DNA from: Curvularia clavata
Lineage: Eukaryota
Reading direction: 5' to 3'
Assembly (NCBI GenBank): GCA_023920165.1
Contig: CP089275.1
Location: forward strand, 5,332,001 to 5,396,000
Length of the DNA: 64,000 nt
In this document: positions 5,102 to 6,082 of the stretch, in pieces
Position numbering within the stretch: the first letter of the stretch is position 1
How the letters are laid out: every line of letters starts with the position of its first letter
The notes under the pieces: model-generated
The model's database searches: none
Told to the model about the DNA's origin: nothing
What the model saw: the letters and a program-made list of their open reading frames with translations, nothing else
Program-made: the position numbers and the translations under genes

Positions 5102-6082
5102 TCATCCATACTGCCTCCAGATAGTACGGCGCTCTGCTGCTGGAGGTGTCTTTGGCCCGGGCAGTATCTCGCGGAGCAAGTCATTGATATCAAGTCCGCG
5201 CTCTAGACAACCGTGCCATTGCCTTGGATAGCCCAAGCTCACTTCTTCAAAGCGCGTGTTATCCACCCAGTCGGTCCTCCTGATGTGCAAGTGCCCAGAA
5301 ACGACCACTTTGGCGTTGAATTTATTGTGCCAGTCATTCGTCTTCTTAGTCCCACACCAGAGAGAGAACCGCGGAACTTTCCACAAATTCACAAGGTCTT
5401 CTCGTAACGGCCAGTGCCCAGCTATGACTAGTGGCGTATCTGGGTGTGCGGCGACAGCTGCCGCAAGCTTCTTCTCAGTCTTTTCTACAAGGGCATGGCA
5501 CCACTCTATACGAGACGAATAGGGATCTGGATGCAACAAATGCTCGTCGGTCGCCTCTATATCTTTCTCCCTGGCCCATTCGAGCGCGTCTTCTAGCTTC
5601 ACGGTAGATGGGCGAAAACTGTAGTCGTACAGTGTAAAGATGGGCGCAATCAGAACCGGACCGCCCTCGCCCTGCCATAGCGTATAGTCATCCTCGGGCG
5701 TGAGAATGCCAAACTCGCGTGCAATTTGCACACACTCCATGTATTTTGCCTCGCCTCTTGCGCCTTGCTCCTTGTTCGCGGGCATGGTGTAGAGCTCGTG
5801 GTTGCCTGGCACCCAAAAGACGTCCTTGAAACACGCCTTGACCTTGGTAAAGGCTATGCGACAGTGCTCAGCCGTTTCGCCCACGTCACCGCAGAGTATC
5901 AGGTCATCATGCGGATGAGGCAGCAGCTTGTCCAAAGCCTCCCGGTTGCCTTTGAACGAGAGGTGAATGTCGCTGATGGCCCATAGGCGACTGGGTGGGG
6001 GTGTCTCGGCTGATGGAGGGGTACCTGGTGGGGACGGTGTATCGGTCACTGCGGCGTTTGCTTCTGCAAGGAGAGGGTCCAT
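5102..6082 (-). CDS. Calcineurin-like metallophosphoesterase, PptH/Rv2795c-like, 326 aa, intronless
   Basis: Metallophosphoesterase motifs SDIH, GDV, GNHE, HWP and GHLH. Subfamily blocks LYDYSF, ATDEHLLHPDPY, FSLWCGT and RFEEVSLGYPRQW. Confidence 0.88.
   Translation of the reverse strand: MDPLLAEANAAVTDTPSPPGTPPSAETPPPSRLWAISDIHLSFKGNREALDKLLPHPHDDLILCGDVGETAEHCRIAFTKVKACFKDVFWVPGNHELYTMPANKEQGARGEAKYMECVQIAREFGILTPEDDYTLWQGEGGPVLIAPIFTLYDYSFRPSTVKLEDALEWAREKDIEATDEHLLHPDPYSSRIEWCHALVEKTEKKLAAAVAAHPDTPLVIAGHWPLREDLVNLWKVPRFSLWCGTKKTNDWHNKFNAKVVVSGHLHIRRTDWVDNTRFEEVSLGYPRQWHGCLERGLDINDLLREILPGPKTPPAAERRTIWRQYG

Follow-up and report, generated by a model that had tools for sequence, protein, structure and literature searches.

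Phosphopantetheinylation of fungal synthases is treated as a one-way modification, and a gene of Curvularia clavata raises the question of whether filamentous ascomycetes also carry an enzyme that takes the arm off again, which, if active, would be a so far overlooked off-switch or reset for the lines that assemble polyketides, peptides and fatty acids. A eukaryotic phosphopantetheine hydrolase activity, in liver, was reportedly described decades ago without a gene. The C. clavata gene lies in a stretch of 64,000 nucleotides of contig CP089275.1 (the window), and a preliminary reading of the letters, made without database searches (the sequence-only reading), had proposed that it encodes a fungal homolog of the phosphopantetheinyl hydrolase PptH (Rv2795c) of Mycobacterium tuberculosis. 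The study characterising PptH calls it unique to mycobacteria and describes the purpose of such erasers as unknown (PMC8557913). A 2026 fungal study seeking such an enzyme found no AcpH homolog in yeast and called the enzyme elusive (PMC13476535).

In the literature searched, which leaves out most subscription journals, no report of a PptH homolog from a fungus or another eukaryote came to light; the terms “phosphopantetheinyl hydrolase” and “fungi” together returned 0 papers, and six locus tags led to none. Fungal PPTases are pursued as targets in a study whose accessible portion mentions no hydrolase (PMC13496288). A survey of fungal acid phosphatases covers purple acid phosphatases, with no mention of pantetheine in its accessible sections (PMC13390437), and the word “phosphoesterase” is absent from the main text, so far as accessible, of a survey of gene transfer in Penicillium (PMC9893605).

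Sequence and fold of the 326-residue protein

The open reading frame was recovered where the sequence-only reading had placed it, and all six sequence blocks quoted from it matched letter for letter (Table 1). Pfam assigns Metallophos (PF00149, E 1.5e-15) and PF12850 to the protein and no other family; five NCBIfam matches were obtained, none of them at cut-off, and TIGR03729 (acc_ester phosphoesterase) scored 36.8 bits, below its curated cut-off of 148.25. A protein search of the 32.4-Mb host genome showed the gene to be single-copy. Its closest named relatives among the matches listed are proteins of Alternaria and Pyrenophora (82-85%).

Table 1. Features of the pptH-like gene, its product and its neighbours (window positions)
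Feature	Position	Strand	Remarks
PptH-type metallophosphodiesterase CDS (P0001)	5102..6082	-	326 aa, ATG to stop, CDS without intron; PF00149
N-terminal extension, residues 1-27	6002..6082	-	acidic, Pro-rich; pLDDT 49-76 over the first 30 residues
Metal motif I, D38-x-H40	5963..5971	-	aligned with DLH of 6UNC; kept in 47/47 named fungal sequences
Metal motif II, G65-D66 (bridging Asp)	5885..5890	-	invariant in the 81-row alignment; 47/47 named fungi
Motif III, G93-N94-H95-E96	5795..5806	-	same in 6UNC; N94 and H95 in 47/47 named fungi
Family-specific block Y152-D-Y-S-F156	5615..5629	-	same in 6UNC; Y152 and D153 invariant in the 81-row alignment
Motif IV, H223	5414..5416	-	aligned with 6UNC; 47/47 named fungi
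Family-specific block F239-S-L-W-C-G-T-x-x-T-x-D-W-H252	5327..5368	-	12/14 residues the same in 6UNC
Motif V, G263-H264-L-H266	5285..5296	-	corresponds to GHLH of PptH, which contains H246; both His invariant
C-terminal W-R-x-(Y/F/W)-G motif	5105..5119	-	kept in fungi; outside the 6UNC alignment; pLDDT 92-96
3'-UTR spliceosomal intron, 202 nt	4807..5008	-	93 nt past the stop; donor GTACGT, branch CTGAT, acceptor TAG
NPP1/NLP-family gene, downstream neighbour	3443..4213	-	PF05630, E 1.3e-39; 54-nt intron, spliced out in two runs, one of them X1
Divergent upstream neighbour, presumed U2AF1-like	6681..7385	+	Pfam zf-CCCH; intron 6982-7046

Colinearity with PptH, as asserted in the sequence-only reading, was borne out: the six blocks follow in order along 6unc_A, from an entry titled M. 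tuberculosis PptH, in an alignment that spans residues 31-314 with E 5e-69. Up to E 1, this PDB sequence search gave just one further row, an unrelated chain (E 0.2), and a profile search of the PDB returned 6UNC at E 3.4e-121 with the next match at 2.7e-4. An AlphaFold2 model built from an 81-row alignment (mean pLDDT 94.5) matched 6UNC in Foldseek with a TM score of 0.94 on the target and E 7.6e-31 (next match, 1e-6), and the two superpose over 276 residues with Z 39.2, rmsd 1.8 Å and 43% identity. Since the alignment behind the model includes bacterial members, the fold match is not independent of the sequence match. The next folds were TT1561, GpdQ, Rv0805, Mre11 and MPPED2, with Z at most 16.9. 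Other metallophosphoesterases (Rv0805/CpdA, GpdQ, Mre11, LpxH, MPPED2, purple acid phosphatases and SMPDL3) share the calcineurin-like core and the metal motifs, but they are only 12-18% identical, remain within that Z limit and lack the family-specific blocks.

Eight residues (D38, H40, D66, N94, H95, H223, H264 and H266), which we take from knowledge of the superfamily to be metal ligands, are the same in 6UNC and in 47/47 named fungal sequences. The H246N variant of PptH is inactive (PMC8557913); judging from a chain length of 313 against a construct spanning 1-310, H246 most likely corresponds to H264 of the fungal protein. The Y152-F156 block lies outside the generic metallophosphoesterase motifs and is common to fungi and PPTase-linked actinobacteria. 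In a reference set of 24 PPTase-linked actinobacterial sequences, 106 positions are at least 90% conserved; 66 of these are occupied by an identical residue in 90% or more of 47 fungal sequences, many of them outside the generic motifs, and 29 differ in fungi or fall below 70%. At several of the deviating positions (L230, S262, R268 and D271), the fungal residue is that of the Gram-negative sequences.

Grouping with other eukaryotic metallophosphoesterases, the outcome named beforehand as contradicting kinship with PptH, did not occur by sequence, profile, fold or tree. The C. clavata protein certainly belongs, by homology, to the PptH-type family. Its identity to PptH is 41-43% over ~280 structurally aligned residues, and all metal motifs and family-specific blocks are colinear. 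Unlike PptH, it has a eukaryotic host, no PPTase beside its gene, a place in a separate clade, an extra N-terminal spacer and the C-terminal W-R-x-(Y/F/W)-G motif, in addition to the 29 changed positions. The N-terminal extension is missing from many fungal homologs whose N-termini were compared, and no signal peptide or mitochondrial presequence is visible in it by eye. R323 of the C-terminal motif is present in 98% of fungi and aligned with a gap in 75% of actinobacteria, and the motif contains no peroxisomal signal. What is new is that a known enzyme family, its sole studied member described as mycobacterium-specific, has a branch in eukaryotes.

The database labels “CpdA,” “Ser/Thr protein phosphatase” and “transposase” carried by fungal members are unsupported by the sequence and fold comparisons. 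Two members, P0371 and P0385, appear as “transposase” in public databases, a mis-annotation.

Transcript, neighbours and selection

The gene had been called intronless, which is correct for the CDS and incorrect for the transcript. Contigs from two of four runs (X1 and X9, from two studies), compared over 3300-7700, skip the segment spliced out of the 3' UTR (CT..AC, that is, GT..AG on the minus strand), and the X9 contig with the joint 4806-5009 extends into the CDS. X1 and X9, whose RNA label was a guess, are shown to be RNA by two further introns: that of the U2AF1-like gene is missing from both, and that of the NLP gene from X1. X14 and X15 reach only short stretches of the gene, with low depth, and were left out of the evidence. 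The donor hexamer GTACGT occurs at +73 to +101 past the stop in 5/9 related loci. Introns in 3' UTRs can trigger NMD in filamentous fungi, and the one described here could by this route hold the putative eraser at a low level.

The GC3 of the gene is 0.61, with 0.57-0.62 in three neighbours and 0.78 in a fourth. Comparison with related loci gave dN/dS values of 0.037 and 0.068, the other two of four comparisons being saturated at synonymous sites. The gene is a real fungal gene, transcribed and under purifying selection. The uninterrupted CDS and the ~50% identity to bacterial proteins might suggest bacterial contamination or a dead copy, an explanation of negligible probability that we reject: spliced fungal genes stand on both flanks, the gene has its own spliced 3' UTR, neighbour-like GC3, synteny in related fungi and the signature of purifying selection, and a metagenomic fungal homolog (L036) contains a short spliceosomal intron in its CDS (372-428, inside the GD-(I/V)-GE motif, as read from the sequence). 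Judging from L036, some family members appear to have gained introns.

The NLP gene adjoins downstream in 7/7 related Pleosporales loci with at least 3 kb of downstream sequence (about four species). On the other side, the divergent neighbour, which we take to be a U2AF1-like splicing factor, begins 598 bases from the ATG, in agreement with the ~600 bp initially estimated. Ten related fungal loci extend 1.7 kb or more upstream, and its exons match none of them; with the neighbour kept in 0/10, we rejected the idea that a shared promoter ties the gene functionally to U2AF1. In two related loci (L018:2-906 and L019:1-263), the upstream neighbour is a kinase gene that here lies at window 17195-18124, which suggests that a local inversion of ~12 kb (window ~6100-18100) brought the U2AF1-like gene beside the pptH-like gene.

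Several further genes of the window may be mentioned. A gene for HMG-CoA reductase (Pfam) at 12550-15775 (+), 6.5 kb upstream, is CoA-using, which is probably coincidental. By their motifs, 35055-36797 (-) presumably holds interrupted pogo/Fot1-like transposase frames, 27715-29908 (+) a HET-domain-like gene and 43182-45789 (-) a NACHT/ankyrin-like gene.

PPTase linkage and the candidate reaction

The sequence-only reading had found no PPTase nearby, and indeed there is none in the 64-kb window; the two ACPS-family matches in the genome are on contigs C1 and C3. Carrier domains are spread over the host genome (66 PP-binding matches), the nearest on C2 at a distance of ~380 kb and none in the window. 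The PptH-PptT operon arrangement is absent from the host genome, which does not exclude membership of the enzyme family. As a separate observation, a single open frame of 13,064 aa at C4:4310528-4345840, with 11 carrier-domain matches, represents a very large intronless NRPS.

In bacteria, we searched for linkage with a home-made PPTase profile (two seeds, both Pfam-confirmed), counting a PPTase if it lay within 1.5 kb. The adjacency that the sequence-only reading named for actinobacteria was recovered at 34 of 45 loci and was missing at 11, in a set that includes many near-identical Rhodococcus loci, three metagenomic ones placed there on similarity, and a locus whose downstream flank is almost nil. 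Two of seven alphaproteobacterial loci have a convergent PPTase (L014:4878-5771 and L089:583-1326), of another Pfam type than the actinobacterial partner, so that this pairing apparently arose independently. No PPTase was found within 1.5 kb at 18 Myxococcota-phylum loci or at three others, two of which have short flanks, and Pfam annotation of 107 ORFs beside the remaining bacterial loci added no PPTase and revealed no carrier-related neighbour that recurs. Four of 16 longer matches extend into a PPTase domain, and two of the four fall outside the actinobacterial clade. Because the hydrolase part is truncated in all four, we rejected true PptH-PPTase fusions, regarded read-throughs of adjacent genes as more likely and counted these cases as adjacency only.

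Streptomyces phosphoesterase genes (upstream of SCO6673 and, in S. avermitilis, upstream of pptA1/A2/A4) overlap Sfp-type PPTases and belong to the same family by sequence, and this operon context is absent in fungi. Of 37 matching plasmid-collection records, 33 are from Streptomyces, and the PPTase gene overlaps the end of the phosphoesterase in one of three records opened. PMC3909215 lists the phosphoesterase gene upstream of the Streptomyces PPTase as of unknown function.

Taking these data together, our preferred reading, to which we assign a probability of about 0.6, is that the fungal protein would act as a cytosolic phosphodiesterase removing (acyl-)phosphopantetheine from carriers of the PKS, NRPS and Lys2 type. 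Eraser activity as such is probable by analogy with the 41-43% identical PptH. According to PMC8557913, PptH is a diesterase without pNPP activity; it strips AcpM, the PKS13 ACP, the ACPs of E. coli, Klebsiella and Pseudomonas, and EntB, and accepts arms with a bulky biotin-PEG on the thiol. Since PptH takes FAS, PKS and NRPS carriers as well as bulky thiol groups, the fungal member should, by analogy, strip both loaded and free arms.

Location, metal identity, substrate and physiological role, which we infer, would fit together as follows. Two metals of the Mn/Fe type would activate a water molecule for attack on the Ser-O-phosphodiester between the carrier serine and phosphopantetheine, in the holo or the acyl-loaded form. 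This would release 4'-phosphopantetheine or acyl-phosphopantetheine and leave an apo carrier, to be re-loaded by the fungal Sfp-type PPTase. No targeting signal being visible, the cytosolic clients of that PPTase, namely PKS, NRPS and Lys2-type carriers, are the likely substrates, more so than the buried FAS carrier. The most likely role would be slow reset or turnover of stalled or mis-primed assembly lines, although an on/off role is possible.

Carrier stripping is favoured by the tie to PPTase in more than one bacterial group, by the 66 carrier matches of the host and by the lack of an AcpH candidate in the host genome, where an E. coli control did score. AcpH, the E. coli ACP phosphodiesterase (PF04336, HD family), catalyses the very reaction proposed here. 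It is unlike the fungal protein in having an unrelated HD-family helical fold, as described in PMC8557913, and the fungal model is alpha/beta, with no PF04336. Against carrier stripping stand the absence of PPTase linkage from the bacteria whose proteins resemble the fungal ones most (0/18 Myxococcota-phylum loci), the 11/45 actinobacterial loci without a PPTase, the 29/106 changed positions and the lack of a PPTase or synthase near the fungal gene. Its main weakness is that the closest bacterial group lost the PPTase link or never had it.

Some weight attaches to small-molecule or peptide salvage, in which the enzyme, the PPTase link having been lost, would leave folded carrier domains alone and act on pantetheine-bearing remnants (phosphopantetheinyl peptides from degraded synthases, derivatives of CoA or dephospho-CoA) or cleave a different nucleotide diester. 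Neither fungi nor the 18 Myxococcota-phylum loci have a PPTase neighbour, fungi have a C-terminal motif of their own and share residue changes with the Gram-negative group, and substrate drift is common among metallophosphoesterases. We nevertheless regard salvage as unlikely, if worth serious attention, for the family-specific blocks outside the metal site are retained. PMC8557913 bears on both sides: it leaves small-nucleotide activity of PptH open, but CoA, cAMP and cGMP at 1 mM inhibited the enzyme by no more than 50%, and no role of PptH in CoA salvage was found.

PPTase adjacency would also be explained if the protein were a 3',5'-ADP (PAP) phosphatase clearing an inhibitory by-product of the PPTase reaction; fungi, however, already own PAP phosphatases of the Met22/Hal2 type. 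Such a function has been suggested, without a test, for the phosphoesterases in operons with pptA1, pptA2 and pptA4 (PMC6042109). It seems to us very improbable for the fungal protein. Cleavage of PAP is a monoesterase reaction, yet PptH does not hydrolyse pNPP, and PptH loss protects against PPTase inhibitors, the opposite of what is expected of a helper.

Returning to the carrier-stripping diesterase, no physiological role of PptH was found even in M. tuberculosis (PMC8557913). More tentatively, and with well under even confidence, we propose that in filamentous ascomycetes an eraser of bacterial origin and a single Sfp-type PPTase could form a write/erase cycle in vivo, acting on PKS, NRPS and Lys2-type carriers, that resets stalled lines and sets secondary-metabolism output globally, with one subclade still moving between fungal classes. 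If this is true, the gene would be the first eukaryotic one assigned to phosphopantetheine eraser activity. The presence of a conserved, expressed and single-copy member in tractable fungi makes both the existence and the purpose of the eraser testable by standard assays. An active enzyme would offer a new control point for natural-product yield and a tool to unload fungal megasynthases. Because M. tuberculosis PptH potentiates PPTase inhibitors, the fungal member, if active, would also be a factor in the response of fungi to such inhibitors.

Distribution, origin and probable transfer of the family

The fungal distribution was compiled from the best 120 matches listed per search, plus cluster look-ups. 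Members among the matches listed come from numerous Pleosporales and further Dothideomycetes (Tothia, Patellaria, Lophium and Elasticomyces), from Xylariales and Diaporthales (Xylaria, Hypoxylon, Daldinia, Pestalotiopsis, Cryphonectria and Discula), from Cordyceps and Lecanicillium, from some Aspergillus, Penicillium and Talaromyces, from Leotiomycetes (Mollisia, Lachnellula, Rhynchosporium and Bisporella) and from the lichen fungi Thelotrema and Gomphillus. These presumably fall into five classes of filamentous ascomycetes, to which Mycena is added. None of the matches listed is from Fusarium, Neurospora, Colletotrichum, Pyricularia, A. fumigatus, A. nidulans, A. niger or yeasts; as PKS/NRPS-rich model fungi are thus without a member among these matches, the function would not be a universal fungal one.

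Among bacterial genomes, the family was found in 8/151 of the Rhodococcus phylum and 35/81 of its order, in 18/151 of the Haliangium phylum and in 6/251 of the Rhodospirillum class. None of 300 gammaproteobacterial genomes scored with a family-level member, and two weak matches from there served as outgroup. The family therefore spans several bacterial groups and is not confined to mycobacteria. The top matches in the ESM Atlas were actinobacterial metallophosphoesterase clusters.

In a 141-row FastTree phylogeny, the 33 named fungal proteins fall, together with 20 unnamed ones, into a single clade with a support of 100 and a stem of 0.38. IQ-TREE analyses of 62 and 69 rows gave SH-aLRT values of 100 to the fungal and to the actinobacterial clade and left the backbone unresolved (all supports being SH-like); the outgroup branch was 2.25 and the fungal stem 0.29. 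The one clade shows that the fungal members have a single origin. The best bacterial match of the 33 named fungal proteins was a Myxococcota or other sequence in 22 cases, an alphaproteobacterial one in 11 and in no case one of the 34 actinobacterial rows, and the best trees place the fungal clade among Gram-negative sequences. AU tests, run with short searches and the 2.25 outgroup branch, rejected neither an actinobacterial sister nor a position of fungi outside all bacteria (p 0.17-0.68 in one series, 0.33-0.60 in the other).

Bacterial acquisition, which the sequence-only reading had raised as possible, is likely from the narrow range in fungi as against several bacterial phyla, and we hold it with good confidence; the AU tests reject no placement, and the closest bacteria are Gram-negative rather than actinobacterial. 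An actinobacterial donor is disfavoured by the best matches (0/33), though the AU tests do not reject it. Filamentous ascomycetes would have received the gene from bacteria once, long ago, and would afterwards have lost it in a patchy manner and, in some cases, passed it from fungus to fungus.

One cluster at 90% identity, P0291, mixes Eurotiomycetes, Leotiomycetes and Sordariomycetes (P0327, P0329, P0333, P0334, P0337 and P0338), and within its subclade identities of 78-93% link Penicillium/Aspergillus, Leptodontidium/Rhynchosporium/Lachnellula and Lecanicillium. The Lachnellula arida protein is 90% identical to those of Penicillium cf. griseofulvum and Aspergillus ambiguus, and 68% to that of L. 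suecica. Recent transfer of this subclade between fungi, perhaps with a gene cluster, is probable from these identities. Such a spread over three classes is typical of mobile cluster genes and would agree with a pathway-specific enzyme, some fungal members releasing a pantetheine-conjugate product or serving one gene cluster. Acyl-pantetheine products of stalled fungal nrPKSs do exist, but they were seen in yeast and were absent in the native fungus (PMC13476535). The C. clavata copy, moreover, has housekeeping genes around it and no synthase anywhere in the 64 kb, and we consider pathway specificity improbable.

The only basidiomycete entry among the matches listed is a Mycena venus cluster (P0405, 11 members), 68% identical to a Discula protein and nested among ascomycete sequences, which suggests transfer of a family member into Mycena. 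Five metagenome contigs (P0137, P0139, P0143, P0155 and P0167) carry long-branched members that group together, some of which could be from other eukaryotes.
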